From: Stegostoma tigrinum
Lineage: Eukaryota
Direction: 5' to 3'
Assembly (NCBI RefSeq): GCF_030684315.1
Contig: NC_081377.1
Coordinates: 32,922,001-32,986,000, forward strand
Length of the DNA stretch: 64,000 bases
Position numbers and translations under genes: made by a program
Shown: positions 1 to 64,000 of the stretch, piece after piece
Layout: every line of letters begins with the position of its first letter
Numbering within the stretch: the first letter of the stretch is position 1
Notes under the pieces: model-generated
Told to the model about the DNA's origin: nothing
The model's input: only the letters and a program-made list of their open reading frames with translations
The model's database searches: none

Positions 1-3000
1 AAATGCTTGGTTTGTCGACGTGCGTTGTGTACTCGCTGGTAGTTCTGGATTCTTTCTCCATGATACCTGCAGAGTGTCACATATTTACAGAACAATGTTA
101 GTAAGGACAATGCAGATACATCACAACCGTCGTGACGCACGTCTCCTCCCACCGCCAGTAGTGGGCGACAGATCTATGGTAGCATCCCAGACAGTACACC
201 AACGCCCCCGTATGGACCGCCGGCGCGGCCCCACAGGCAGCCCCCGCATTGGACAACACACACATAACACACACACACAGTACCAAAGATTAGTATTCGA
301 CACATTCAGGTACATTAGGTACTACAAACTTGAGAACTAGAAAATATTTTTCTTAATTGCTGTTCTCCAGTTTGACAGGAACAAGGTTTTGAGGAACACA
401 CAGTTCCCAGTTTCAATATTTCATGCAGTAATTGAAAAATTCTCAATAGTTCAACACTGCTTCTCCTATAAGCAGAGCATCACTAGTGACAGCCTGTTAC
501 CAGTTGAACTTATGTGCAGTAAAAACATTCACATGTGGAAAATTCTCAGTCACTAACAAACTAAGAAGAAATTTGAATCACTTACCCAAATCCTCGTTTA
601 CACTTAGGGTTTTGTCCATCATTGTCCAGAGCATCAGCCAGACCGGAACGACTGGATCCAAGGCCTTGCCCATCTCTCCATCCCTGCTTTTCCATCACCT
701 TCCTGCCAATTCCCTAGGTAAGAATCAGAAAGTTCATAATGATCAACATTAGAATGACATCACGGACATCACAGACACTGTGGACTGAAGGAGCTGTTCC
801 TGTGCTGTACTGTTCTATGTTCAATTATACAAAAACAGCTCAGAATTATTCAGGGAGTACCACACTGTTGGGAAGTATAGTCAATAAAGCCTCTGAATAT
901 TTGTTTAGGGGACACAAAATCTTAGATAATTTTTCCCAAAGAAAAACAAGGCGTTGTATTGCAGCCAACATTTGTCTTTCAACCAACATCAATGCAACAT
1001 GCAAAACAGTCTGATCATTTAAGTTCCTGCCATGGATGATGCGTGCAATTGGCTTGTTTACTACAGAAGTAATTTAATTGTTATGAGAATTAAAAGATTG
1101 GAGAAGCTAAATAGTTCACTCTTGTTTCTAGAAGGCACGGTGGTTAATCCCACGGATGCAAAAGTTGCACATGTTTCCTATATAATTGCAGTAGCAATGA
1201 TTTGCAGTAAATCTACACACAGCATAAAGAGAAAATGCGGAAAATACTCTGCTGGTCTGATTGCATCTATGGAGTGAGAAACAGAATTAACATCTTAGAA
1301 CTGGAACCTTTCATCAGAACAATTTTGAAATGTTTTTATTTCAGATTTCAAGCATTCCCAGCATTTTCCTTTTGTGCAAGTCTATACACTTTGTCAGTTT
1401 GAAAAGCATTTAAAATGGTTACAACAAGATGCATTTTTAATAGTTGCTGATTCTCTGTTTCATATGAAGAGCAATAGAAACCAGATTATTACTAAAGTTT
1501 GCTGGAAGGCTCTGAATCAAGCAGACAGTCTAAACACACACATTTAGCAGAATCATCAGTTTATAATTATGAACTATTTGGAATAAGCAAAACAAAGAAA
1601 CATGCTTACCTTAGTATATCGTTCAAAACCTCCAATACGTGGGGACTGCACCGAGACATTCTCCTCACCCTCTCTCTGCCGTTGTTCTAGCCTCATCTGC
1701 ACATAATCCCGTGAATCTTTATCTCCTCCATCTGTGCAAAATTTGAAAAGTAACATTTTCCACGCTCTGCATTATAACAAAAACTCATTGTGGGCAAAGC
1801 TTTCTAACAGTCACTACTCAGGCAAAACAAGCAACTTGCATTCATGAGGGTCCACCATAATATTTCACCATTTTGTTGCATTTCCAAAGGATAATGAGGA
1901 ATCAAATTCCAAAGGCACATCAAATAGTAAAAAATCATAAAGAACCCATTCATCCAAACTGACCTTTATGATAATATACACTCATATCGACGTCCCAGTC
2001 ATCTGCCGTCTCCTCGTCAAAATCTGGAAGAAAGCAACAGAAATCAACCATTGACACCAGCCATTACCTGCCCATCAACCGAGCAACTACTGGACCAACC
2101 GTTTCATGTTTATTCCAATTCTAAAAATCCCCATATTACAACCTACCTCCTTTCTCCTCCTGCCAATATTGAGCATCTGTATAAAACACAAGTCCAGATC
2201 CTCCTTTTTCCCACTTGAGTTCAATCTCTTCCTCATAGAGTCGTTCCTTCGTCCTCTCCTGAGTCGTAACATCCTCGTAGAGCGCTTCATGCCTCTCCCA
2301 TTCCTCACATGTATCATTGTCCTGGGAAAAACACAAAGCTTGGTGACCAGCCACAAACACTACTTGCATTTATACAGTGTAACACAACAAAACTGTTCAT
2401 ACTGCACAACCCAAGAACCAGCCCCTTGAGCCATCTTTGACTATCTATCGATCCTAATTCAGGCTCAAGTTCCAATCCTTGCAGCACCCATCTCACCATG
2501 ATGCCAAAGGAGAATGCGTCTGGTGATGGGGCCACTTCAAAAATATCCATGACCTTTCCCCACACCAAAGCATGAAAATGTTACTTACTTCGTCAGAACA
2601 CGACTCCTCTCCCTCCACCTTATCCCCTCGCTTCAAAGACTTCCTGTGTCCTGTCCCTTGTTGCTTCTTTCCTGTCTGCAGCACAGGAGCACATACATCT
2701 CTCTGTGGGATTTCTCCTTCTACAGCTGTATACACTGCCTCTGTACACAAAGAGGAAGCAGTGTTCGGGTACTGAAAAGGAACATTACCATAACGCCTGT
2801 TGGAGGTTGTCTTGGGAAATTTCAGATCAAGCTTGGTGATGATGCGGGGAGGCAAACGGCATGTTTGGATCAATTCTAGGAAGACTCTCAGCGGCGTACC
2901 CACATTCCCATTGGGCATCAGCGTTGGGGGATTTAACTCTGGTAATCTGGACAAGTCCTCAGGTGTGAAAGTCTCACTTAGAGCTCTCCGACTCCGAAGT

Positions 3001-5597
3001 TCCTTTCTGGTTTTGTACGAGAACAGCTGAGAATCTGTTGAAGAAAACCAATAATGAATATAGATCTCTTCCCATACAGAATAACAAAATCCAAAAATGT
3101 GTACACACTAAAATCTCCAGACACATGGTCTAGGTGGGTTGCTGTTCAGAGGGTAGGTACAGACATGAGGGGCTGAATGCACTACAGGCATCTATGAAAC
3201 TGCCAAATGGTACTTGCAATAGAATTGGACAGGTCCTCCTTCCAACCTACAAATTGCTTCCCAGATTCATGATACTTTATAGTGGCACTGATCTGCTCAT
3301 ATAGGTCTGAAGGTGGAAAGTTCAGCCAGCCAAGCTATAAGATTTCATTACTTGAAATAGATAGCATATTTTAAACAACAAAACTTCATAGGAGAGTTAT
3401 CTAGTTTTGGATCAGTAGTGGGGAAACTATTGGAAAAATTCTGAAATTTTCAAAGATTGGATTTCTGCTTAGAGAAGCATTAATCAATCAAGATGGGCAG
3501 ATTAGAGATTTTGTCTAACAAGTTTGATTCAATTTTTCCCAGTGACCATGTGTACATGAGGGTAGTGGAGTTGATGTTGTCTGCATGGACTTAGAGTCAT
3601 AGAGGTACACAGCACAGGAACAGACTGTAGAGTCCAATTCATCCATGCCGACCAGATATCCTACATAAATCTAGTCCCATTTGCCAGCATTTGGCATGTA
3701 TCCCTCTAAATCCTTCCTATTCTTACACCTATCCAGATGCCTTTTAAATGTAATCATACAAGCTTCCACTACGTTCTTTGGCAACTCATTCCATACTTCA
3801 GTAAGGTTTTTGACAAGGTTTCACATGGCAACTACTCAGAAGCCTGTGGATTTTGGGGAAAATTGGAAATTCAAAATAGGCTTAGCAACAGGAAGCAGTC
3901 CATGTCCAAGATTTGACGCTGCATCCTTTGCTGTTTGTAGACTACATTAATGATTTAGACATAAATGTAGGAAGAATGATCAGTAAGTTAACAGATAACA
4001 AAAACTGATGGTATTATAAATAGCAAGGAGGAGAGCCTTAGACGACAGGACAATATAGACAGCCTGGTCAGTTAGGCTGAACAATGCAAATGGAATTTAA
4101 TACAGCAAATTGTGAGGAGATACATTTTGGGAGGACTAACAGAGCATATTCTACTAGCTCTGCTAAACTTCTCTACCATTCTGTGTTTGTTTCAGATTAC
4201 GAGCATCCACTATACTTTGCTTTTCATGTGCAGTTTTAAGATGAGGAGCAGAAAGTTTAAGGGGCTTTGAGGAATTTGCTGGCTGAAAGGGTGGCAGGGA
4301 TACTTAGGACAGGAATTGTTTGTTGGCTTGCCAAACTGACTGGATTTCGTGCAAATGTTTTGTCTCCCTTCTAGGCGAGATTGTCAGTGCTGTGCTGTGT
4401 AGCCTCTGTTAAAGCTCTGTTGTTCTGTCCCACTCTGAATTTATATGGTCCAGTCTGTCACGGTGGGCAGACTTGTAATATAGTGGTATGTAGACAGGTC
4501 TATTTCAACATGTTTGTTAATTGCATCGATGGTGGAAAATCAGACCTCCAGGAATTCTTGCACTTGTCTTTGTTGCGCTTGTCTTAGTACTGTAACTTTG
4601 TCCCTGTCAAATTGATGTCCTTCTGTGTTGGAGTATATTGAACCGAGGAGGAATTGGTCGTGCTGTTTTGCTGCGAGTTGGTGTTCATCTATCCTGGTGA
4701 TGAGTTTCCTGCCCATCTGGCCTATGTAGTGTTTCTCACAGTTGCTGCATGGTATTTTATATACCACATTTGTTCTGCTCATTGTGGGTATGGGGACTTT
4801 CGTCTTTGAGAGCAACTAGCAAAGTGTGGCTGTTAGTTTGTGTGCAATCCTTATTCCAAGAGGTTGTAGTTAGTTCTGATGAGTTTTTAACATAGGGTAG
4901 GGTGGCCAGTGTGTTGGGGTGTCTTCTTGGTATTGGTTGTTGACCAGGCATTGGCGGACGAAGCTGTGAGGATAACCATTGTTTGCAAAGACTCTGTTTG
5001 GTGTTTCTCTTTATTTTGCGCAGCTCTGGATGTGACATGAGTCAAACAGAGTTTAAACATGAATTTAAACAGAGTCCTGACACAGTTCTGTTTGTGAACA
5101 TTGGGATGGTTACTGTTGTAATTCAAGATTTGGTCTGTGTGTGTAATCTTTCTGTATACGCTGGTAAAGAATTCGCCGTTGTTCTTTCATTACGTCTTTC
5201 ATTACGCCATTACATCAACACCAACTCGTAGCAACTGCCCCCTCCCCCAACCCTGACCTGCAATCTCTGCCGCTCGGACGATACGGATAAAGCAGCGACT
5301 CTGCAAACTGTCTCCGACCCTATCCAGCCACTGACAGCCATCGTACATCAGCTGAAAGCTGGAGGCTCGCTCAGCTGGCAGCCGAACCACACAGCAACAG
5401 GTCGGGCTGCGGCCTGGCTCCGGTGCTGTGTCCTGCGTCGAAGAAAGCGGCCTCCTCCTTTCGGGCCGGTGCCGATAATGAAAACAGCTGAAGCCACCGC
5501 TCTCAGTGAACTGTGAGAACTGATGGCGAAGATCAGCAGAACGAAGACTGCGCGGAATATTCCCGACAACAGCATAAACGTAATCCTGTGCCGCCAT
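1..5597 (-). CDS. GPATCH3: G-patch domain-containing protein 3; 7 coding exons, last exon runs off the left edge
   Basis: Exons with phase-consistent GT-AG junctions: 5597-5258 (MAAQDYVYAVVGNIPRSLRSADLR..FHYRHRPE), 3034-2589 (LPELNPPTLMPNGNVGTPLRVFLELI..RRYGNVPFQY), 2321-2147 (EEWERHEALYEDV..KWEKGGSGLVFYTDAQYW), 2023-1964 (DFDEETADDWDVDMSVYY), 1731-1610 (DGGDKDSRDYVQMRLE..GGFERYTK), 713-586 (G-patch GIGRKVMEKQGWRDGQGLG), 66-1 (YHGERIQ...). Motifs match recalled vertebrate GPATCH3; syntenic with NR0B2/NUDC/KDF1. Confidence 0.95.
3385..4145. mobile_element. Old CR1 LINE fragments with a nested CR1 3' end (3592-3797, minus)
   Basis: Decayed RT-like stretches (VCMDL..FDKVSHG; CEEIHFGRTN) and a CR1 3' UTR resembling the copies at 14617 and 62122. 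Confidence 0.6.
4310..5200 (-). mobile_element. Degenerate Penelope-like element (Poseidon-type GIY-YIG endonuclease end) in GPATCH3 intron 1
   Basis: ORF 4540-4815 NVVYKIPCSNCEKHYIGQMGRKLITRIDEH (GIY-YIG); upstream fragments NYNSNHPNVHKQNCVRTLF and TLPYVK; several frameshifts; decayed hammerhead-like motif at ~4356-4387. Confidence 0.8.
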
Positions 5598-5811: not shown

Positions 5812-8166
5812 ATTAGAACATAGAAAAGTACAGCACAGTACAGGCCCTTCGGCCCACGATGTTGTGCTGTGGAATAATCCTAATCCAAAAATAAAATAAC
5901 CTAACCTACATTCCCCTCAATTCACTGCTGTCCATGTGCATGTCCAGCAGTCACTTAAATGACACTAATGACTCTGCTTCCACGACTACCACTGGTAAAC
6001 TATTCCATGCGCTCACAACTCTCTGGGTGAAGAACCTCCCTCTGACATCTCCTTTATACCTTCCTCCTAACACCTTAAAACTATGACCCCTCGTGGCAGT
6101 CAATCCTGCCCTGGGGAAAAGTCTCTGGCTATCAACTCTATCCATGCCTCTCATTACCTTGTACACCTTGATCAGGTCACCTCTCTTCCTCCTTCACTCC
6201 AGAGGGAAAAGTCCGAGCTCAGTCAACCTCTCCTCGTATGACAAGCCCTCCAGTCCAGGCAGCATCCTGGTAAACCTCCTTTGCACCCTCTCCAAAGCCT
6301 CCACATCTTTCCTATAATAGTGCGACCAGAACTGGACACAATATTCCAAGTGTGGTCTCACCAGGGTTTTGTAGAGCTGCAGCATAACCTTGCGGCACTT
6401 AAACTCGATCCCCCTGTTAATGAAAGCCAAAACACCATATGCTTTCTTAACAACCTTATCCACCTGGGTGGCAACTTTGAGGGAGCTAAGCACTTGAACA
6501 CCAAGATCCTGCTGTTCCTCCACACTGCCGAGAATCCTGCCTTTAATCCTATATTCAGCATTTAAGTTCGACCTTCCAAAATGCATCACTTCGCATTTAT
6601 CCAGGTTGAAATCCATCTGCCATTTCTCAGCCCAGCTCTGCATTCTGTCAATGACTCGCTGAAGCGTGCAATAGCCCTCGATACTATCAACGGCACCTCC
6701 AACCTTTGTGTCATCAGCAAACATACTAACCCTCCCCTCAACCTCCTCATGCAAGTCATTTATAAAAACTACAAAGAGCAGAGGCCCAAGAACAGAGCCC
6801 TGCGGGACACCACTCAGCACTGACTTCCTGGCAGAATACTTACCATCTACAACCACTCTCTGCCTCCTGTCAGCCAACCAATTCTGAATCCAGACAGCCA
6901 CATCACCCTGCATCCCATACCTCCTGACTTTATGAATGAGCCTGCCATGAGGAACCTTATCAAAGGTGAAGTCCATGTACACCACCTCCACTGCTCGACC
7001 CTCGTCAACCTGTCTCGTGACTTCCTCAAAGAACTTAATATGATTTGTAAGACATGACCTGCCCCTCACAAAGCCATGCTGACTCCCTTTAATCACGCTA
7101 TGCTTTTCCAAATAGTCATAAATACTATCCCTCAGAATTCTTTCCAAAACCTTGCTGACCACAGACGTAAGACTGACTGGTCTGTAATTTCCAGGGATTT
7201 CCCTATTCCCTTTCTTGAAAAGAGGAACAACATTTGCCTCCCTCCAATCTTCCGGTACGACTCCCGTGGAGAGTGAGGAAGCAAAGATCTTCGCCAGCAG
7301 CTTAGCAACCTCCTTTCTCGCTTCCCGGAGCAACCTAGGATAAATCTGGTCTGGCCCTGGGGACTTATCAATCTTAATGTTTGTCAAAATTTCCAGCACA
7401 TCAACTTCCTCAATCTTGATCCGTTCAAGCCTGTTTTCCTGCTCCTCAAAGTTCTCATTCACAACAAGGTCCCTTTCCTAAGTGAAAACCGAAGCAAAAA
7501 ACTCATTTAGAGCTTCCCCTATCTGCTCAGACTCCACGCACAAGTTCCCCACGCTTTCCCTGATCAGCCCTACCTTCTCCCTGATCATTCTCATTCCTCA
7601 CGTATGAGTAAAATGCCTTCGGGTTCTCCCTAATCCTTCCTGCCAAGCCTTTTTCGTGCCCCCTCCTGGCCCTCCTCAGTCCACTTTTGAGCTCCTTCCC
7701 AGCAAGCCTGTATCCTCTAAAGCTGTGCTAGACCCTTGCTTCCTCTACCTTACGTACGCTGCCTTTTTCTTTTTGACAAGAAGCACCTCTGTACCCGTCA
7801 TCCAAGACTCCTTAATCTTACCTCTTCTTACCTGTCTCAGAGGAACAAATTTATACATCACTCGCAACAACTGCTCCTTAAACAGCCTCCACATATCTGC
7901 TGTGCCCTTTCTGTGGAACAATTGCTCCCAATCTGTACTTCCCAACTCCTGTCTGATAGCATCATAGTTACCTTTACCCCAGTTAAATATCTTCCTCTGG
8001 TAACTGCTCCTTTCCCTTTCCATGGCTATGGTAAATGTGAGGCTGTTGTGGTCACTGTCGCCAAAGTGTTCTCCCACCACGAGATCTGACACCTGTCCTG
8101 GCTCATTGCCGAGCACCAAATCCAAAATGGCCTCCCCCCTCGTCGGCCTGTCCACGTACTGAGTAA
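5812..8166 (-). mobile_element. Young 5'-truncated CR1 LINE (ORF2: endonuclease end, RT, C-terminus, 3' UTR)
   Basis: ORFs 7745-8155 (PTRGEAILDLVLGN..SDHN), 6194-7462 (KSPGPD, NYRPVSLTS, GVPQGSVLGPLLF, FADDTK), 5951-6166; few stops; 3' tail CTGTACTTTTCTATGTTCTAA at ~5812-5832. Confidence 0.95.
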
Positions 8167-8274
8167 GGATTGTTTGTGGAGCATTTATAAATTGGTGCTA
8201 AACTTCTTTGGCCATAATATAATAATGCACCGTTTTTGGTCAAGTCCTGGAGCGTTACATGGACCCAGAGTTTC

Positions 8275-8420
8275 TGGCTGTCAGATAAGATGTTTAACCA
8301 AGGGCCTGGATGCCTGCATAGGTCAATATTAAAAATCCCATATGGCACTATTCCAAAAAAGAGGAGGGGATAATGTCCCTCGCGGCCTGGACCAATATTT
8401 ATCCTTCAGTCAATATCACT
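8275..8420 (+). mobile_element. Deu-domain SINE fragment (SacSINE1/AmnSINE1-like)
   Basis: AAAAATCCCATATGGCACTATT...CCTGGACCAATATTTATCCTTCAGTCAATATCAC resembles the recalled Deu-domain consensus; related pieces at ~29140-29330 (-). Confidence 0.6.
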
Positions 8421-9067
8421 AGTTATCAACCCATCACACTGAAACATTAGCTTTATTTCTTCTCTTCTCATGCTGCCTAACCACTGAGTATTCGGGTTCA
8501 GTTTTCCAGCATCCAAAGTATTCTGTTTATGTCCTTAAAGTTGCCTTATCTCTGTCTTTAACTGTTACTGGTGTTCCCTGAGCAGCAATTCAGCTTCAAA
8601 GATCTAATTTTCATCAACAGGATAGAGCAGCAGATATTGGTGACCGAGACTTTATACAGAGCTGTAGGATGTGCTTTGCTGGCGTATTAGGAGAAAGGAG
8701 TGATACATAAGAGAGAAAAAAAGTCAGCAAGTCCTGAGAATGGAAGCCCAGAGTCATTAATAAGATGAATGATTGAGCTTTAAGGCTTGTTTGTCTCTTT
8801 AAACTAGAGCAATAATTTTAAATGGTTTTGGGGAGAAATAAGTACAATATTAAATCTATTGTTCAACTATTTAAACTTCATAATATGACTATGGACAATA
8901 ATTGAGTCATATTTCTAAACATGAAGCTTAAAGAGACAGAGCAGTTCAGGGAACAAGTCACATTAGCAGAGATAATGGGAACTGCAGATGCTGGAGATTC
9001 CAAGATAATAAAATGTGAGGCTGGATGAACACAGCAGGCCAAGCAGCATCTCAGGAGCACAAAAGCT

Positions 9068-9095
9068 GACGTTTCGGGCCTAGACCCTTCATCAG
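9068..9095 (-). ncRNA. Minimal type I hammerhead ribozyme motif (inverted arm copy)
   Basis: Exact reverse complement of 10757-10784. Confidence 0.7.
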
Positions 9096-10399
9096 AGAGG
9101 GGGATGGGGGGAGGGAACTGGAATAAATAGGGAGAGAGGGGGAGGCGGACCGAAGATGGAGAGTAAAGAAGATAGGTGGAGAAGGTGTGGGTGGGGAGGT
9201 AGGGAGGGGATAGGTCATTCCAGGGAAGACGGACAGGTCAAGCAGGTGGGATGAGGTTAGTAGGTAGCTGGGGGTGCGGCTTGGGGTGGGAGGAAGGGAT
9301 GGGTGAGAGGAAGAACCGGTTAGGGAGGCAGAGACAGGTTGGACTGGTTTTGGGATGCAGTGGGTGGGGGGGAAGAGCTGGGCTGGTTGTGTGGTGCAGT
9401 GGGGGGAGGGGATGAACTGGGCTGGTTTAGGGATGCAGTGGGGGAAGGGGAGATTTTGAAACTGGTGAAGTCCACATTGATACCATATGGCTGCAGGGTT
9501 CCCAGGCGGAATATGAGTTGCTGTTCCTGCAACCTTCGGGTGGCATCATTGTGGCAGTGCAGGAGGCCCATGATGGACATGTCATCAAGAGAATGGGAGG
9601 GGGAGTGGAAATGGTTTGCGACTGGGAGGTGCAGTAGGATATTCCACTCCCGCACATCCCAGATGTCCAAGTTCTTTAAGGACCGCAACTTCCCCCCCAC
9701 GGTGATTGAGAACGCCCTTGACCGCGTCTCCCGCATTTCCCGCGACACATCCCTCACACCCCGCCCCCGCCACAACCGCCCCAAGAGGATCCCCCTCGTT
9801 CTCACACACCACCCTACCAACCTCCGGATACAACGCATTATCCTCCGACACTTCCGCCATTTACAATCCGACCCCACCACCCAAGACATTTTTCCATCCC
9901 CACCCCTGTCTGCTTTCCGGAGAGACCACTCTCTCCGTGACTCCCTTGTTCGCTCCACACTGCCCTCCAACCCCACCACACCCGGCACCTTCCCCTGCAA
10001 CCGCAGGAAATGCTACACTTGTCCCCACACCTCCTCCCTCACCCCCATCCCAGGCCCCAAGATGACATTCCACATTAAGCAGAGGTTCACCTGCACATCT
10101 GCCAATGTGGTATACTGCATCCACTGTACCCGGTGCGGCTTTCTCTACATTGGGGAAACCAAGCGGAGGCTTGGGGACCGCTTTGCAGAACACCTCCGCT
10201 CAGTTCGCAACAAACAACTGCACCTCCCAGTCGCAAACCATTTCCACTCCCCCTCCCATTCTCTTGATGACATGTCCATCATGGGCCTCCTGCACTGCCA
10301 CAATGATGCCACCCGAAGGTTGCAGGAACAGCAACTCATATTCCGCCTGGGAACCCTGCAGCCATATGGTATCAATGTGGACTTCACCAGTTTCAAAAT

Positions 10400-10516
10400 C
10401 TCCCCTTCCCCCACTGCATCCCTAAACCAGCCCAGTTCATCCCCTCCCCCCACTGCACCACACAACCAGCCCAGCTCTTCCCCCCCACCCACTGCATCCC
10501 AAAACCAGTCCAACCT
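10400..10516 (+). repeat. 39-bp tandem repeat x3 in the Penelope ORF tail (mirrored at ~9336-9452)
   Basis: Translates as SPSPTASLNQPSS / SPPPTAPHNQPSS / SPPPTASQNQSNL. Confidence 0.8.
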
Positions 10517-10756
10517 GTCTCTGCCTCCCTAACCGGTTCTTCCTCTCACCCATCCCTTCCTCCCACCCCAAGCCGCACCCCCAGCTACCTACTAACCTCA
10601 TCCCACCTGCTTGACCTGTCCGTCTTCCCTGGACTGACCTATCCCCTCCCTACCTCCCCACCCACACCTTCTCCACCTATCTTCTTTACTCTCCATCTTC
10701 GGTCCGCCTCCCCCTCTCTCCCTATTTATTCCAGTTCCCTCCCCCCATCCCCCTCT

Positions 10757-10784
10757 CTGATGAAGGGTCTAGGCCCGAAACGTC
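10757..10784 (+). ncRNA. Minimal type I hammerhead ribozyme motif in the Penelope pLTR
   Basis: CTGATGA-A-GGGT(CTAG)GCCC-GAAA-CGTC: intact core, helix II, palindromic ACGT helix III, GUC cleavage triplet; helix I only ~2 bp (CT/AG). Confidence 0.7.
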
Positions 10785-11841
10785 AGCTTTTGTGCTCCTG
10801 AGATGCTGCTTGGCCTGCTGTGTTCATCCAGCCTCACATTTTATTAAGTCACATTAGCAGTTGGTTTTAGTTTGTGAAACTTCCAAATCAGAAAACTTTG
10901 GCTGGAAATCTGCAGGTTATTAGAACCGAGAAAGTTTAAGTTCTCAGATTTGAGAGAAGCTCATGTCACCAGCAATGTTTCCACTTAAGCTATGTAATTG
11001 CAACAGCTATTCTGAGTGTCCATGCATGCAGATTAGCAGACCAACTCATTTACTCTCAGTTTCTCAGCTGTTGCTGTGCAAGGACTTTGGAATTCTGCAC
11101 AGCAGGCGGAGAAGTTGGAGGAAATGTAGATCAACAGGCTTGGTAAAGATTGATTAAATTTTATCCACAGTCCATGCAAAGCAACTATAAGAAGTCAGTT
11201 AAGTAAAACCTCAGAGAGTTTAGGTTGGTGTGTATTTTCTCTGATGTTGAGTTCCTATAATGGACAGTGTTGAGAAATGGATTCAAACTTTGTCCTGCTG
11301 TATGTTTTAGATCTTGATATTATTACAATCCATTTAGGAAATTATTTTGATTCTCAAATACCACCACTACTGTAAAAGTTAATGGTTTGGTTTAATCAAA
11401 GTACACAAAGTCCCCAATGGAATCAATTTTCAGAAAGTGCTGACGAGGTGTTCATAATTATCAAGAATTCTGAACAGTACGTTCTAACCATTGGTAAGTA
11501 AAACTGTGAAATACCAATATAAAACTCAAGTAATCCCTTTTGATCTCCTATACGCGCATATAGACAGACACACACAATAAAGAAAAACACAGGTATTATG
11601 GGTAGATGGAAAAAAATGGGGTGAATACAGTTCAATAGCACAAGTCCACACAGTTTGATGAGTTACTCCTGTTGCTTCCTGAGATTTCCTGTTCTTTGAA
11701 ATCCTTCCTCCAGCTCATTTCACTTCTTCACAGAAGTCACAGGGCTATGCTACATTAATTACAAAGTCTCTTGGTCACTGGTCAAATACAACAACTTACA
11801 TCAACCAGTGGGAGAAAAAAAATGACTTTCTTCAACTTCAG

Positions 11842-12736
11842 CAAGTTTGCAGACGACACAAAGGTCGGAGGTGTCGTTGACAGTGTAGAGGGCTGTTGTA
11901 GGCTGCAGCGGGACATTGACAGGATGCAGAGATGGGCTGAGAGGTGGCAGATGGAGTTCAACCTGGATAAATGCGAGGTGATGCATTTTGGAAGGTCGAA
12001 TTTGAAAGCTGAGTACAGGATTAAGGATAGGATTCTTGGCAGCGTGGAGGAACAGAGGGATCTTGGTGTGCAGATACATAGATCCCTTAAAATGGCCACC
12101 CAAGTGGACAGGGTTGTTAAGAAAGCATATGGTGTTTTGGCTTTCATTAACAGGGGGATTGAGTTTAAGAGTCGTGAGATCTTGTTGCAGCTCTATAAAA
12201 CTTTGGTTAGACCGCACTTGGAATACTGCGTCCAGTTCTGGGCGCCCTATTATAGGAAAGATGTGGATGCTTTGGAGAGGGTTCAGAGGAGGTTTACCAG
12301 GATGCTGCCTGGACTGGAGGGCTTATCTTATGAAGAGAGGTTGACTGAGCTCGGTCTCTTTTCATTGGAGAAAAGGAGGAGGAGAGGGGACCTAATTGAG
12401 GTATACAAGATAATGAGAGGCATAGATAGAGTTGATAGCCAGAGACTATTTCCCAGGGCAGAAATGGCTAGCACGAGGGGTCATAGTTTTAAGCTGGTTG
12501 GTGGAAAGTATAGAGGGGATGTCAGAGGCAGGTTCTTTACGCAGAGAGTTGTGAGAGCATGGAATGCGTTGCCAGCAGCAGTTGTGGAAGCAAGGTCATT
12601 GGGGTCATTTAAGAGACTGCTGGACATGTATATGGTCACAGAAATTTGAGGGTGCATACATGAGGATCAATGGTCGGCATAACATTGTGGGCTGAAGGAC
12701 CTGTTCTGTGCTGTACTGTTCTATGTTCTATGTTCT
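11842..12736 (+). mobile_element. Young 5'-truncated CR1 LINE with 8-bp TSD
   Basis: Open frame from KFADDTKVGG to the ORF2 stop at 12649; (TGTTCTA)n tail; TSD AACTTCAG at 11834-11841 and 12737-12744. Confidence 0.95.
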
Positions 12737-20900: not shown

Positions 20901-22857
20901 TCACTGGGAATATAACATTTCGAACAGTAGTTCCTTCATGTTTGCTGTCCCGATCACTGGCCTGAAGAACAGCTCGATGATGAGTCCGGTGCTGACAGTT
21001 TTCAGGGCGGGCACGGCGAGTAAAATACAGGCGAAATGGCTACTGCCCTTGGCCGACACCACGATCTCATACAGTGCGCGCTGCGCTTCCCGCTGAAGGC
21101 TCTCAATGTAGCCAGCAAGCTCGGAGTCCAGGCAGGTCTGCAAAAGTCGAGAGCACAAATGAGATCAGAGCGAAAGGAAACGGAAGCTCGGCACGTCCAT
21201 TAGCCGCTGGAATCAAAAGTTTAATGTTTCGGGTGGGAGCCTGCTTCCTGACTCAAACATTGGCTGCGGATTTGTTTCACGTTTCCAGCGTGCTCAGTGT
21301 TTAAAGCCATCTCGCTGTCTGATCCGATCCATAACCAAGGCCCGCCTCCCCCACGCTGAACAGGGCAATCTGATGAGATCTAGGGGTACAGCTTCATAGG
21401 TCCCTTGAAAGTGGAGTCACAGGTAGACAGGGTGGTGAAGGCGGCTTTCGGCAGGCTTGCTTTCATGGATCGGTGCATTGAGTAAAGGAGTTCGGATGTC
21501 TGTTTGCAGCTGTACAAGACGTTTACTGCCTGGGGTTTTATTGCCCTACTATAGAAAGGATAATATTAAACTAGAAAGAGTGCAGAAAAGATTTACTGGG
21601 ATGCTACCTGGACTGGAAGGTTTGAGTTATAAGGCCTTTGTTTCCATTGAGTGTAGTAGACTGAGGGAGTGATCTTATGGAGGTCTATAAATTCATGAAA
21701 GGCATAGATAAGGTAGATAGCCAACAGCTTTTCCCCATGATAGGGGAATTTAAAACTAGAGCGCATTGGTTTCACGTGAGATAGTAGAGATCAAAAAAAT
21801 CCACAGGGGTTTTTTTTTGGAGAGTGGCGAGTGTCTGGAATGGGCTGCCAGAGGTAGTGGTGGAGGCAAGTACAATGTTGTTATTTAAGAAATATTTAGA
21901 CAAGTACATGGATGGGATAAGGAAAGGAGGGATATGGACCAAACATGGGCAAACTAGATTAATTGTGAAAACTGGGCGGCGTGAGCAAGTTGGGTCAAAG
22001 GGCCTGTTTCTATGCAGTAAACCTCTATGACTCAATGAGTACTGGAAATCTTAAAAGCTTAGCAGAAGAGTATGTTGTGGGTGTGGAGGGGTTTACCTAT
22101 GGATGATTCTGAAGTGAGGAAATAATCACATTAGTTATTTATCCAGGAAGTACAGAGATCCCCTGATTCCTGACCCTTGTCTGGTCCTAACCCCTTACTA
22201 CGATGTGGTAGAATTATTGCTGGATTCAAGGGGGTGGGGGCAAATTTGAGACTTTTTTTTATAAAGCACTTCAGCATTACAATTTCTGTGGTTCATTACA
22301 CATACTGGAATAAAGACAAAGGCTGTTATAATTACCAGGGTTGAAAAGGATAGCTCCTTTCAAGTACGCATACTCCTTAGGACTAAGATCCAGGCCCCGG
22401 AATTTGTTCAGACACATTTTTATTCTGTGTACACCAGCAAGCATTGGCTGCCGACTCCCTTCTTCTTCTGTCCTGAGCAGATTTGGTCCATTCAGCAAGA
22501 TTCTCCTCAGCATGCTGTGACCTGGGGTCTCTATCACCTCAAAGCTCACTCTATCTTGAGCCAATCCTAACAGAAACAAGGACAGCCGGCAGCTCTCCAG
22601 CAGCAGCAGCTGGTCTGATCTGGGAAGATGATGGAATGACGGGAGGTTCCTCATAAAAGCGACTGTCTTTGCCAATACATCGGATACTGCCTGACAGGTA
22701 ACACGGGGAGTCTTCAAGCAAACCTGACTTCATAGAAGCAGTTGTGATGTGAGAACTTGCAGTCTCCACGTTGGCTCAGGATGGTGTACAAGATTGCATT
22801 CTGTCTCTTCCCAGAATCACACTGGCATTTATCAGATAGAACACTGACACAAGCCAT
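20901..22857 (-). pseudogene. NR0B2: Nuclear receptor NR0B2 (small heterodimer partner, SHP), two exons, disrupted reading frame
   Basis: Exon 1 22857-22336 (MACVSVLSDKCQC..NAILYTILSQ..; LKTPRVTCQAVSDVLAKTVAFMRNLPSF..LSPKEYAYLKGAILFNP) and exon 2 21137-20901 (DLPGLRA..; YIESLQREAQ..ELFFRPVIG). The ATG frame hits TGA at 22716-22714, and the spliced exon 2 frame hits TGA at 21105-21103; in both cases the conserved sequence continues in a shifted frame. Gene identity is very secure; pseudogene status needs raw-read confirmation. Confidence 0.85.
21370..22035 (+). mobile_element. Degenerate CR1 3' portion in the NR0B2 intron
   Basis: PYYRKDNIKLERVQKRFTGMLPGLEGLSY; VWNGLPEVVVEA. Confidence 0.85.
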
Positions 22858-24675: not shown

Positions 24676-26925
24676 CTAATTTAACAAGGTGTAGAGCTGG
24701 ATGAACACGGCAGGCCAGGCAGCATTAGAGGAGCAGGGAAGCGAACATTTCAGGTCTGGACCCTTCTTCAGAAATGGGGGAGGGGAAGGGGGCTCTGAAA
24801 TAAATAGAGAGGGGGGAAGGCGATGATAGAAGGTGAATAGTGGAGCAGATAGGTGGAGAGAAGACAGACAGGTCAAGGAAGCGGGGATGAAGCCAGTACA
24901 GGACGGCATAGGTAGGGAATTGGGATGGTGGTTGGTCAGTGAGGAGCGGATAAGTGGGAGGGAAGACAGACAGGTCAAGGAGGTGGGGATGAGGGAGGGG
25001 CTGGTCTTAGGGGTTGGTCGGGAGTGGGGAGATTTTGAAGCTTGCAAAGTGCACATTGAGATGTTTGGGCTGCAGGATTCACAGGTGGAATATGAGGTGG
25101 TGTTCCTCCAGTAGCATCATAATGGCACTGGAGGAGGCCCAGGATGGACAAGTTGTTCAAGGAGCGGGAGAGGGAGTTGAAGTGATTCGCAACTGAGAGG
25201 TGTTGTCATTCGTCACGAACCGAGTGTAGGTGCTGCACAAAGCAGTCTCCAAGCCTCCGCTTGGTTCCCCTGCTATAGAGGAGGCCACATTGGAAACAAT
25301 ATACCAAATTAATGGACGTGCAGGAGAACATTTGTTAAATATGGAAGGTTTTCTTGGGGCCTGGGATGGAGGTGAGGCGGGAGGTGATGGGGCAGGTACA
25401 GCATCTCCTACAGCTGCAGTTGAATGTGCTAGGGGTGGTGGGAATAGTGGAGAGTGTGAAGCGGATGACGGATTCGCAGAGAGAGCAGTCCTTCCAGAAG
25501 GAAGATAAGGGTGGGGAGGGAAATATATCCTTGGTAGTGAGGCCAGATTGCAGGTGGCGGAAGTAATGGAGAATGATGCTTTGAATCTGGAGGATGATGG
25601 GGTGATAAGTGAGGATATGGGGAATTCTGTCTTTGTTGTTATTGTGGGGAGGGGGTGTGAGGGCTGAGGTGCAGGAAATGCAAGAGATGTGGTCGAGGGC
25701 ATTTTCGACCACTATGGAGGGGAAATTGCAGCCCTTGAAAAATGAGGACATCTGGGATGACCAGGAGCAGAACACCTCATCTTGGGAGCAGATGCAGCAG
25801 AGGTGAAGGAATTGGGAACAGGGGATAGCATTCTTGCAGGAAGGTGGGTGAGGGGAGGTGTACTCTAGGTAGCTGTGGGAGTCGGTGGGCTTGAACTAGA
25901 TATCAGTTTCCAGGTGGTTACCAGAGATGGAAACAGAGAGGTCCAGGAAGGAGAGAGAAGTATCAGAGATGGTCCAGGTGAACCTAAACTTGGGGTGGAA
26001 GGTAGTAGTAAAGTGGATGAACTGTTCGAGTTCCTCATGGTAGTACGAGGCAGCGCTGATACAGTCATCGATGTAATGGATGAAGAGGTTGGGGATGCTG
26101 CCAGTGTAGCCACAGAAGAGGAACTGTTTCATGTATCCTACAAAGAGGCAGGCATAGCTTGGGCTCCTGAGGGTACCCATGGCCTTTCGTCTGTAGGAAG
26201 TGGAAGGAGTTGAAGGTGAACTTGTGAAGTGTAAGGAGAGTTCAATTAGGCAGATAAGGATGTCAGTGGAGGGGGACTGGTCGGGCCTGCGGGAGAGGAA
26301 GAAGCAGAGGGCTTTTAGGCCATCTGCATGGGAATGCAAGCATATAGGAATGGATGTCCACGATAAAGATGGTGTTGAGGACAGGGAATCGGAAGTTTTG
26401 GAGGAGGTAGAGGGCACAGGCGGTGTCAGGATGTAGGTGGGGAGTTCCTGGACCATGGGTGAGAAAAAGGAATCGAGATAAGTGGAGATAAGTTCAGTGG
26501 GGCAGGAACAGGCAGATACAATGGGTTGACCTGGGCAGTTGTGCTTATTGATTTTGGGTAGGAGATAGATATGGACAGTGTGGGGTTGGGGAACAATGAG
26601 GTTGGAGGCTGTGGGTGGGAGGTCACTTGAGGTGATGACGTTTTGGTGGTCAGGGGTAGGGTCATGATCAAGGGGGCGGTAGGAGGAGGTGTCAGAGGGT
26701 TGGTGCCTGGTCTCGGCGATGTAGAGGTCAGTGTGCCACGCGGCAACTGTGCCTCCCTTGTCCGCGGGTTTTGTAGTGAGGTTAGGGTTGGAGCAGAGGG
26801 CTGCACGTTCTGTGGGGGAGAAGTTGAGGCGATTGATGTCACGATGGCAGTTGGAGACAAAGAGGTTGAGGGAGGGTAGGAGGCCTTGAGGTGGTGTCCA
26901 AGAGGATAGGGTGTGTTGGAGGCCT
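24676..26925 (-). mobile_element. Older degenerate Penelope-like element (RT plus GIY-YIG), same family as 8970-10845
   Basis: AMGT..SPSYACLFVGY, FIHYIDDCI (RT active site), SFLDLSVSI, SQMSSFFKGCNFP..VENALD; many frameshifts; pLTR with a hammerhead variant at ~24744-24771. Confidence 0.9.
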
Positions 26926-28327: not shown

Positions 28328-41461
<13,134 letters not shown>

Positions 41462-49915: not shown

Positions 49916-50238
49916 GGGCATCATGGTGGCTCGGTGGTTAGCACTGCTGCCTCAAAATGTTCGGGTCCCAGGTTTGATTCCACCCTTGGATGACTGTCTG
50001 TGTGGAGTCTGCATGTTGTCCTCATGTTTGTGTGTGTTTCCTCCCACAGTGCAAAGATGTGTAGGTTAGGTGGATTAGCCATGCCAAATTGTCCATATTC
50101 TCCAGGGATGTGCAGGCTAAATGGATTAGCTGTGGGAATTACAGGGTAGTAGGTGGGGGTGGGATGCTCTTCAGAGGTTCAGTATGGACTTGATGAGCTA
50201 AATAGCCTGTTTGCACATTGTAGGGGATTCCATGATTC
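49916..50238 (+). mobile_element. HE1-type V-SINE inserted in an old CR1 (CR1 continues ~50240-51210)
   Basis: GGTGGCTCGGTGGTTAGCACTGCTGCC head, V domain, TAGGGGATTC tail; flanking CR1 motif MDVIYLDFQK. Confidence 0.8.
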
Positions 50239-51602
50239 TTTGAAGACCAGTCTTACTGATTTCTTTGATATAACAAAGTAGACATGGGTAATGTGATGGA
50301 TGTAATATATTTGGATTTCCAAAAGAACTCTGACAACCTACAGCACAAGAAACTCGTGACTAAGATCAAAATATGTGGAGTAAGGGGTCAGTAACAGAAT
50401 GTAAGGGAGGCTGGGTACAAAACAGAAATCAGAGATATGGGTTAAAAGTAGTTAATCACACTGACAAAACAGAGCAAGTGATATTTTACAGGGATTGATA
50501 GTGAGGTCACTCTTATTCACTACTCACATAAATGATTTCAGAATTGAAATTCAATTTGAAATTTCACAAATGACAGCACGTTGGGGTGCTATTAATATAA
50601 AGGACTGTGACAAATTAAGTGAAGACATTAATAAACTAGGAATATGATATTATCAGCAAATAAGCTTCAGTATTTTTAATCCTGAGGATGTCACATTTCA
50701 CCAGGAATAAGGAAATCACATGCTTCTTGCTAAACAATTATCTAAGCTGGGGACAAAAACAACAGAATCTGGAATTCAGATGCACAAATCATTAAAAGTA
50801 GTGGCAAATTATAACAAAGCCATAAAATGGGATGCAATACACTGGTTCATTTCCACTGGGACATATACAGAACCTTAGGTCACACATATGGCACACGATG
50901 CACAATTCTGGCCCCCACAGGGGCTCTTTTCTCTGGAAATGAGAAGACTAAAGGGCCATGTGATAAAGGTCTTTAAGATAACATACGGGCTTTATAGATT
51001 AAATGTTAAGAAAATGTTTCCACATGTGAACAAAACTAGCGTTATACGTTTTATAACGTATAGGGGATTCCATGATTCTTTGAAGACCAGTCTTACTGAT
51101 TTCTTTGATATAACAAAGTAGACATGGGTAATGTGATGGATGTAATTTCTGACAATTTATTAGTGATAACAAGAAACCTCTTTACTCAGTGTGCAGTTAG
51201 AATGTAGAACTGACTACCAAGAAGAGAAGTCAAAGGAGAACAAAATTGATACACTGACTAAACTTGACAGAGGAAAGAATAAAGAAATATGGTGATAATT
51301 AGAGGTGAAGTAGACTGGAAAGCTATTGTGGAAAATAAACACTGGCTTGAGCCAATTATTAAGTGGTTTGACAGGCGAGGGATGATGTTGGACTGACATA
51401 CCTATTTTAGTACCAAACAGGGATTGACATTGATAAGAGGCAGAGGAAGAGATTAAGTGTTGCTTGGAGGAGTTGTAAGGACAGAACAAAGGGCAAGGTC
51501 TATGATAGAATGGGAAACACAGCAGTGATTAAATGGCAAAGGTATTATGTTGCAATAGAGCAAAATGGGACAGTCATGGAACAAATGTGAAGAAAAACAG
51601 AG

Positions 51603-51710
51603 GTAATGAGAACTGCAGATGCTGGAGAATCCAAGATAACGGTGTGGGGCTGGATGTGCTCCTGAGATGCTGCTTGGCCTGCTGTGTTCATCCAGCCCCA
51701 CACTTTGTTC
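51603..51710. mobile_element. Miniature fold-back Penelope insertion with 15-bp TSD
   Basis: TSD TGAAGAAAAACAGAG at 51588-51602 and 51711-51725; inverted GTGTGGGGCTGGATG / CATCCAGCCCCACAC. Confidence 0.8.
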
Positions 51711-52039
51711 TGAAGAAAAACAGAGTTCGATCCTGGTGAGCTGTAAATGCCAAAGTAAAAACATTAACAACAACAGTTGCAATGAAGATGGAAGCAAGGC
51801 TATTCTCTGAAGCTGTGAAACTCAAGCTGGAGACCGTAAGGTTGCAAACTGACTAATCAACAGATCATGAGTTTGTACTGAATTCTATTAAATCAGTACT
51901 GAAGGGTGAAGTCAGAGTGGGTCATGATTGCTTTGCAGTGGAGAAATGATTGCAATTGGTACTATGATTGTGGAACAAATTGGAGTGTACAGTAAAGCAT
52001 TATTCCAATTTGCAGTTGTCTTCTCAAGTACAGGAGACT

Positions 52040-62625: not shown

Positions 62626-62899
62626 TGGAAGTAGTTGAGGCAAATGACTTAGATACAATCAAGTGGAACGAGGTAAACAGGAGCCAGAATCGAGTTAGAT
62701 GAAGAAGTCTTGTTTGAAGTGTAATGTTCAGTATAAATCTATGGATTGAATGACCTATTTATATGCTGTACAAAGGAGACACTACCTGGCCTTAGAATTC
62801 TGACTGAAAGTGCATATAGCCACATTGAGTCAAAAGACAGAAGACTGGATTCAGAGTTTTTGTCTGCCTCCAGTTGTAAACATCATCAATAAATTCCCA

Positions 62900-63123
62900 G
62901 AGATAGACTCCAGCGACAGCAGTTCGTGCTAAGATAACACAGCGTGGAGCTGGAGCAACATAGCAGGCCAGGCAGCTTCAGAAGAACAGGAAAGCTAATG
63001 TTTCAGGTCAGAACCCTTCAGAAGAAGGGTCTTTTTGAAGAAAGGTCGCGACCTGAAACATCAGCTTTCCTGCTGCTCTGATGCTGCCTGGCCTGCTGTG
63101 TTCCTCCAGCTCCACACTGTATT
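62900..63123. mobile_element. Fold-back Penelope mini-insertion with 15-bp TSD and opposed hammerhead remnants
   Basis: TSD ATCAATAAATTCCCA at 62885-62899 and 63124-63138; inverted arms around ~63025; TTGAAGA-A-AGGTC(GC)GACCT-GAAAC at ~63035-63059. Confidence 0.8.
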
Positions 63124-64000
63124 ATCAATAAATTCCCAAACTTGTTGTGCACCAGCTTCCCCTCTCTAAAGTAACCAGACAGTTTCTCCCAAACTGGCAA
63201 AAATAGCTCTAAATGTATAATTCACTTGTACACACCAACTCATCAAAATCTCTCTGAGCACCAGCAAATGAATAAGCTTCCCTTGGTAAGCTGGATATAA
63301 AATCCCTGCCTATGATTTGTAAAGGAAGTGCTCCTGTTATTTTCAAAATGGTGACAGGCTAAAACTTGTGGGATTCAAAGGCTGGAATCACTGAAAGTAA
63401 GCACATAAGTGTCAAAAATAATTAGAAAATGATACTGGAAAGAGTGCAGTATAGATTTGTCAGAACATTGGTCTTTTCTACAAGGAGGATGGAATATAAA
63501 ATTGGGAAATTCAGCTAAAACTGTACAGGACATTGGTGAGACTAGTTCAGAAAATGGGATGAGGCCTTTTGCTTATGAGGAAAGGTTAGACACTGGAGTT
63601 TACAAAACCTAGAAGTGATCTTATTGAAATTTGTAACATTCTGAAGGAGTTTAACAGGATAGATGCTGGCAGAATATGTCCTCTCTGGTAAGGAGGGAAG
63701 GGGATGGTCTAAAGTTGGAAGTTACAATTTAAAATTAAGTCATTTAAGACCAAAATGAAGAGGAATTGCTTGTCTTAGAGGGTTATTAGTCCTAAAATTC
63801 TGTATCCCCAGACAGTGCAGTGATGTACACATTCACAGTTGGGATGGAATTTTGATTTACAAGGGAGTCAAGGCGAACAGACAAGAGTTCAGACCACAAG
63901 CAGTTCACCTGATTTAGGGAGGAAGGGTTGGCAGGAGGCTCGAGGAGCCGAGTGGCCTGGCCCATTTACTTATTTGTGATCTTCACACCCTCTTTCCCCT

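Follow-up and report, generated by a model that had tools for sequence, protein, structure and literature searches.

Genomic setting and layout of the inverted unit

A Pfam scan covering 150 of the 157 long open frames in the window, the whole 64,000-nt stretch of Stegostoma tigrinum DNA analysed here, identified RT fragments in two places, 6197-7477 and 11759-12646. Its other matches were a nuclear-receptor ligand-binding domain (22280-22729), NuDC and CS domains (32 and 36.6 kb) and DUF4656 (48.3-49.5 kb). We take the neighbouring genes to be GPATCH3, NR0B2, NUDC and KDF1, and their order across 2496-49535 (GPATCH3-like, NR0B2-like, NUDC, KDF1-like) is presumably that of human. The Pfam domains support NR0B2-like, NUDC and KDF1-like; GPATCH3 is a tentative name, because an Atlas search with exon 2496-3107 returned no usable match. 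A minus-strand coding exon starts near 5597, in a CpG-rich patch, and the last coding exon of the nuclear-receptor gene ends near 20904. The inverted unit studied here (8955-10860) lies between them, ~3.4 kb upstream of the start codon in the former and 10 kb beyond the stop in the latter, and the insertion appears to be intergenic as judged from coding exons, a method to which untranslated exons or an upstream NUDC start are invisible. Two LINE RT pieces, 5814-6722 and 11845-12730, which are 82% alike and inverted relative to each other, flank the insertion. Elsewhere in the window, an 86-nt perfect direct repeat was observed at 50221-50306 and 51061-51146, 840 bp apart.

The layout of the unit was recomputed from the window, which contains no N. 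The two arms, 9006-9635 and 10217-10846, are reverse complements that match at 629 of 630 bp, and the lone mismatch, 9218 against 10634, is exactly the one given in the original prediction. They are separated by a 581-bp spacer (9636-10216). The predicted one-sided tail of 36 nt was likewise recovered at 8970-9005, on the left arm only and unpartnered on the right, and so was the 15-bp TSD around the unit: the 15-mer at 8955-8969 is repeated at 10846-10860 and is absent from both strands elsewhere in the window. By chance, a 15-nt match was obtained in 0 of 3000 random 37-nt window pairs (14 nt, 1; 10 nt, 2). Base 10846 is common to the right TSD copy and the right arm, and the last three bases of the left TSD copy, 8967-8969, are also the element's own continuation past the tail; because of these overlaps the unit boundaries are ambiguous by 1 and 3 nt. 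The features of the unit, in order, are as follows.

8955..8969, plus strand: left TSD copy, 15 bp; family tail ends reach 8967 in contig joints and in the 32.5-kb copy
8970..9005, minus strand: 36-nt tail, a 3' extension past the tail-less end site, on the shorter arm
9006..9635, minus strand (sense on minus): left arm, a 5'-truncated copy with the endonuclease end, the 39-nt tandem and the 3' region/pLTR
9068..9095, minus strand: minimal hammerhead motif of the left arm, core plus 4-bp helix II (putative)
9636..9641, plus strand: inversion junction
9636..10216, plus strand: spacer, 581 bp, additional 5' sequence by which the right copy is longer
9642..10532, plus strand: open 3' part of the PLE ORF, with the post-RT region, the C-x4-C-x2-C linker and GIY-YIG with CCHH
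10217..10846, plus strand: right arm, the 3' 630 nt of the longer copy, ending at the tail-less site
10401..10517, plus strand: three diverged 39-nt tandem units at the ORF end, mirrored in the left arm
10757..10784, plus strand: minimal hammerhead motif of the right arm (putative)
10846..10860, plus strand: right TSD copy, 15 bp, its first base common to the arm

Read from the inversion junction outwards, the plus strand 9636-10846 is one longer 5'-truncated copy and the minus strand from 9635 to 8970 is a second, shorter and tailed 5'-truncated copy, so that the two meet at their 5' ends. No palindrome was found at the inversion junction, 9636-9641; its first 5-6 bases may be a small gap relative to the family or inserted bases, as judged by comparison with one older copy, 72% identical.

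Identity of the element

The frame 9642-10532 is open, and its translation gave a Pfam GIY-YIG match with an E value of 7e-4 and a score of 20.2 bits, below the curated cut-off of 22.6. A homologue search among longer proteins found 25, of which 22 carry the RT domain PF00078, and the best of them, a Chiloscyllium punctatum protein, is 62% identical over 35% of the query. In an alignment of eight relatives, seven with PF00078, the CCHH residues of GIY-YIG (two Cys inside the core and two His) align with those of the RT-bearing relatives, and the linker C-x4-C-x2-C of the spacer ORF is kept in seven, the eighth stopping before the linker. The element is a Penelope-like element (PLE), in agreement with the original prediction. 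That prediction had also placed the linker and the start of GIY-YIG in the spacer; both are there, and the spacer covers in addition the post-RT region and the GIY-YIG core. Three features of an endonuclease-bearing PLE were found side by side: GIY-YIG with CCHH, a hammerhead motif in the pLTR, and a truncated inverted copy with a one-sided tail and a TSD. A DNA transposon or MITE with terminal inverted repeats was also considered, and was rejected on the asymmetric tail, the retroelement ORF and ends that lie on RT start sites.

According to the available text of Craig et al. (2021, PMC8557442), a CX2-5CxxC linker occurs in Neptune and Nematis, and Penelope/Poseidon elements are without it; the C-terminal GIY-YIG with CCHH plus this linker is the same in Neptune/Nematis and in the focal element, whereas the focal target, unlike that in this comparison, is not a microsatellite. 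Because a zinc-finger-like linker is present, where Penelope/Poseidon elements have none, the linker motif suggests a Neptune/Nematis-type PLE rather than a Penelope/Poseidon one. The designation 'Penelope' therefore stands in the sense of Penelope-like, and does not extend to the Penelope/Poseidon clade. The RT would lie upstream in the same ORF and is known here from the homologues; its core has been truncated from the focal copy, so that the clade is not fixed by phylogeny and the copy itself is not autonomous.

One minimal hammerhead motif was identified in each arm, a feature that had not been predicted. Each putative ribozyme has the core, an extra base before helix II, a G-C closing pair and palindromic 15.2-16.2 positions, features that match those given in the available text of PMC4209133 (for minimal hammerheads see also PMC6155905); as a monomer it would have a helix I of just 2 bp and a helix II of 4 bp. 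An Rfam scan returned five chance-level matches and did not report a hammerhead, and the hammerhead-tail region folded no better than its shuffles (z 0.33, 0.45 and -0.92). In public contigs covering 9090-9098, many loose ends coincide at 9096 (363 and 361 contigs), a position immediately upstream of the hammerhead core and not at the cut site. The contigs also contain head-to-tail units 123-132 nt long. The window copies at 17.7, 32.5 and 39.3 kb begin at the equivalents of 9096, 9097 and 9100.

Related copies, age and local consequences

Ten clusters of the family were examined in the window. Three are head-to-head units with a one-sided tail-like extension and a 15-bp TSD, namely the focal unit and two miniature ones at 51588-51725 and 62885-63138; two are single-arm copies with 10-bp direct repeats, and five are without a clear TSD. 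The 51.6-kb unit carries its tail on the shorter arm, as the focal unit does, and the tail of the 63-kb unit is diverged. The centres differ among all three head-to-head units. The focal tail is also found on the copies at 13.4, 29.5, 32.5 and 51.6 kb. The family is very abundant in public contigs: two runs of the same species contained 343,797 and 323,130 matching contigs, which by depth lie nearly all on the element and do not represent copy number, and two relatives contained 3,340 and 4,795. Most of the matching contigs are 90-99% alike.

The same layout has been described before. The available text of PMC8557442 reports that PLE insertions often have an inverted 5'-truncated copy adjoining the 5' end and a tail of 30-40 bp that is often one-ended, and that of Arkhipova et al. 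(2013, PMC3846280) gives an inverted pLTR, an optional 31-bp tail and a 9-bp TSD as the typical Penelope structure. As described in these sources (Pen2a_Av in the latter), the typical endonuclease-bearing PLE unit shares with the focal unit truncated and inverted copies, a one-ended 30-40 bp tail, an enclosing TSD and a hammerhead in the pLTR. The focal unit, by contrast, is without a full ORF, a direct pLTR pair or a junction palindrome; its inverted arm is 630 bp long and reaches into the endonuclease, compared with about 180-210 bp in the rotifer examples, and its TSD is 15 bp rather than 8-10 bp. We consider it very probable that the focal unit is an ordinary head-to-head PLE insertion made in a single event. 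Its layout is not unusual; the arrangement is published as a typical PLE insertion (in the portions of PMC8557442 and PMC3846280 used here) and recurs twice in the window. As a structure the unit matters little, being a clean example of a standard PLE insertion.

Other family sequences were noted. Joints between opposite strands, at 8967-9004 (45 and 51 contigs) and at 8971-9003 (32 and 30), connect a tailed end to a tail-less end; they are apparently tail-to-tail, and may reflect insertion into the element's own end site or an end-to-end joining of units. An older, longer PLE copy with RT lies on the minus strand at 24682-26921; its identity is 72% with the focal copy and, over 516 aa, 58% with the Chiloscyllium protein, and a TSD was looked for around it and not found. 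At 29342-29695, a tail fragment is followed by an apparent 5' continuation and then by a second tailed 3' end, forming a partial tandem.

The insertion is young by divergence, because the arms have one difference between them and the TSD copies none, the frame is uninterrupted and the CpG observed/expected ratio is higher than in the older copy (0.64 vs 0.36). With the rate measured in the epaulette shark, 7e-10 per base per generation, given with a wide interval in the available text of PMC10587355, one mismatch corresponds to about 1.1 million generations (95% range 0.03 to 6.3 million) and zero mismatches would still allow 4.2 million, on the assumptions that this rate applies here and that the mismatch post-dates the insertion; an RT error would make the unit younger. 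The prediction of a very young insertion thus holds on the scale of divergence, whereas in time it is not established, since the rate permits about a million generations.

There is no sign of a host function. In a read-through RNA from either strand 629 of the 630 arm bases would pair, which is trivial, and formation of dsRNA would need such read-through, yet the site is apparently intergenic. The 581-bp spacer would count against cruciform extrusion. A 630-bp near-perfect inverted repeat some 3.4 kb ahead of a host gene's start codon could, hypothetically, matter locally if it were transcribed or unstable.

Origin of the inverted arms

Two priming events at a staggered cut, as originally proposed, best account for the focal unit, and we assign this reading a probability of roughly 0.65. 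The insertion would have been made in trans by a Neptune/Nematis-type PLE, giving a non-autonomous product. The GIY-YIG endonuclease would cut the two strands ~15 nt apart, a distance that we infer from the TSD, and leave two 3' overhangs, each of whose 3'-OH would prime reverse transcription near the RNA 3' region, the first at the end of the tail and the second 36 nt inwards from there. The cDNAs would stop after about 666 and 1211 nt, their far ends would be joined by end-joining repair, and fill-in would make the TSD. The template could be a pair of RNAs bound to a protein dimer, a single RNA that was copied twice, or two units within one tandem RNA.

The outer ends of the unit bear directly on this reading. 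In contig joints the 3' ends of the family cluster at 8967/8968/8971 and at 9003/9004, both focal outer ends fall there, and so do the 3' ends of other copies in the window. Both outer ends are therefore 3' ends of the element, as had been claimed, and two-ended priming is favoured because they occupy the family's two preferred 3' end sites, at which priming would have begun; the tail on the shorter arm and the single TSD point the same way. In addition, the arms agree at all 14 variable sites listed for the arm, with the focal allele being the minority one at 9, and these shared minority alleles indicate that both copies came from one donor sequence.

Near-identical arms with common minority alleles would also be explained by self-priming or template switching, in which one primed cDNA or an antisense template would fold back to produce the mirror arm, either ahead of integration or in the course of it. 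The available text of PMC3846280 attributes head-to-head PLE copies to self-priming, with an antisense strand as template, and proposes it for repeats with junction palindromes. Such a palindrome is absent at the focal junction, and the position of the tail on the shorter arm would defeat a simple snap-back, in which the longer cDNA is without the tail and the tailed cDNA without the spacer, unless an extra deletion or switch took place; we regard self-priming as unlikely here. Somewhat less likely again is a pre-formed donor, an inverted structure that already existed at the donor locus and was transcribed and inserted whole. That one TSD encloses the whole unit would agree with it, as would the ability of PLEs to mobilise complex pLTR-flanked units described in part of PMC3846280, but the different centres of the three window head-to-head units argue against it, and the focal junction does not figure in the 15 best-supported contig joints listed (791 further).

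The possibility of an assembly or library artefact, such as a fold-back chimera, was assessed with public contigs from two samples of the same species, one of which may be the assembly's own source, and from two relatives, aligned to 8000-10216 (left flank, tail, left arm and spacer). One contig per sample of the species, 8140-8989 with 0 differences and 8111-8989 with 1 difference, runs from the left flank into the tail, entering it by 20 nt where the bridging rule is 31 nt, so that the left junction is weakly supported by reads. No contig across the inversion junction or the right junction was present among the 32 pieces listed (231,177 further), which leaves some room for an artefact, and the focal inversion joint was likewise missing from the 15 best-supported joints. 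Ordinary copies run from 10216 straight into the arm, as the joint 9635-10216 indicates (18 contigs in each of two runs). The mismatch site 9218/10634 was not among the 40 differences listed (183 further), and contigs of the two relatives left the left flank uncovered at 90% likeness and so yielded no ancestral empty site. No empty-site loose end was present among the 24 listed (3,102 further), so that the TSD is deduced from the filled allele. The structure itself makes an artefact unlikely: the TSD, an asymmetric tail on a family end site and one arm mismatch are unlike a fold-back read, and the same layout is seen in older, diverged window copies. With the left-junction contigs also taken into account, we consider this explanation very improbable.

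Two successive independent insertions at one site, with the arms later homogenised, are the least probable explanation. The great abundance of the family, and the tail-to-tail and head-to-tail joints between its copies, would fit them, but the unit has one TSD and no inner one, and its arms are 99.84% alike, compared with 90-99% for most family contigs, with 9 minority alleles common to both.

Two-ended priming also has a partial precedent in PAc, the Poseidon element of Anolis carolinensis (Frangieh et al., 2024, PMC11167929). In the available text of that study, the protein cleaves and extends both strands in vitro, initiation takes place inside the RNA, at two neighbouring sites with the tail between them, and a dimer was modelled. 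The focal tail is likewise bounded by two adjacent 3' end sites, and in both elements these sites lie downstream of the hammerhead. Counting against the parallel, the anole element belongs to a different clade from the focal one, Penelope/Poseidon, which is without the linker zinc finger; the RNA start sites are reported as non-homologous to the cut DNA, and no finished head-to-head product appears in the portion of the study drawn on here. The origin of PLE inverted arms and tails is called undefined in the available text of PMC8557442, and a two-ended priming model for PLEs was not found in the literature searched, which lacks most subscription journals and older Penelope reviews.

The original prediction had set the two priming events against L1-style twin priming. 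As described in the parts of PMC2912911 and PMC11702581 used here, L1 twin priming resembles the focal unit in that both target 3' ends prime, with outer microhomology, and the cDNAs are joined mid-unit, and it keeps a TSD of 12-18 bp, as the focal unit keeps its own. The second L1 primer lands upstream, beside the end of the first cDNA, whereas the focal starts are within 36 nt of each other. L1 inversion breakpoints are deletions (22 of 32) or duplications (10 of 32) of 1-10 bp in the available text of PMC11702581, whereas the focal unit duplicates 630 bp and has no poly(A), and thus differs from an L1 twin-priming product. The contrast therefore holds for the 630-bp duplication and not for the priming geometry, which is the same; in part it is a matter of words, since the two differ only in where the second primer lands.

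Microhomology was scored by eye at the 3' junctions of the family. The eight TSD-defined window junctions have 1, 3, 0, 5, 3, 2, 3 and 2 nt, a sum of 19 nt where about 5-9 would be expected (P 1e-4 to 1e-2 across the match rates assumed), in a test that allows ambiguity on both sides and draws on a small sample with two uncertain 10-bp TSDs and one diverged tail; for the six junctions with 15-bp TSDs alone, P is 9e-4 to 3e-2. These 0-5 nt differ from the non-homologous initiation reported for PAc in PMC11167929. A symmetric form of two-ended priming is worth raising, tentatively and at somewhat less than even odds: both overhangs of the 15-nt staggered cut would form a few base pairs with the element RNA at its two fixed start sites, and each would prime a separate cDNA, perhaps on a dimeric protein that carries two RNAs. 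If true, symmetric priming would explain the inverted repeats and the one-sided tail of PLEs together, and the many copies in the genome would make it directly countable. The focal unit is useful as a data point, because its long asymmetric arms, the shorter of them tailed, separate fold-back from two-ended priming better than short palindromic stumps do.
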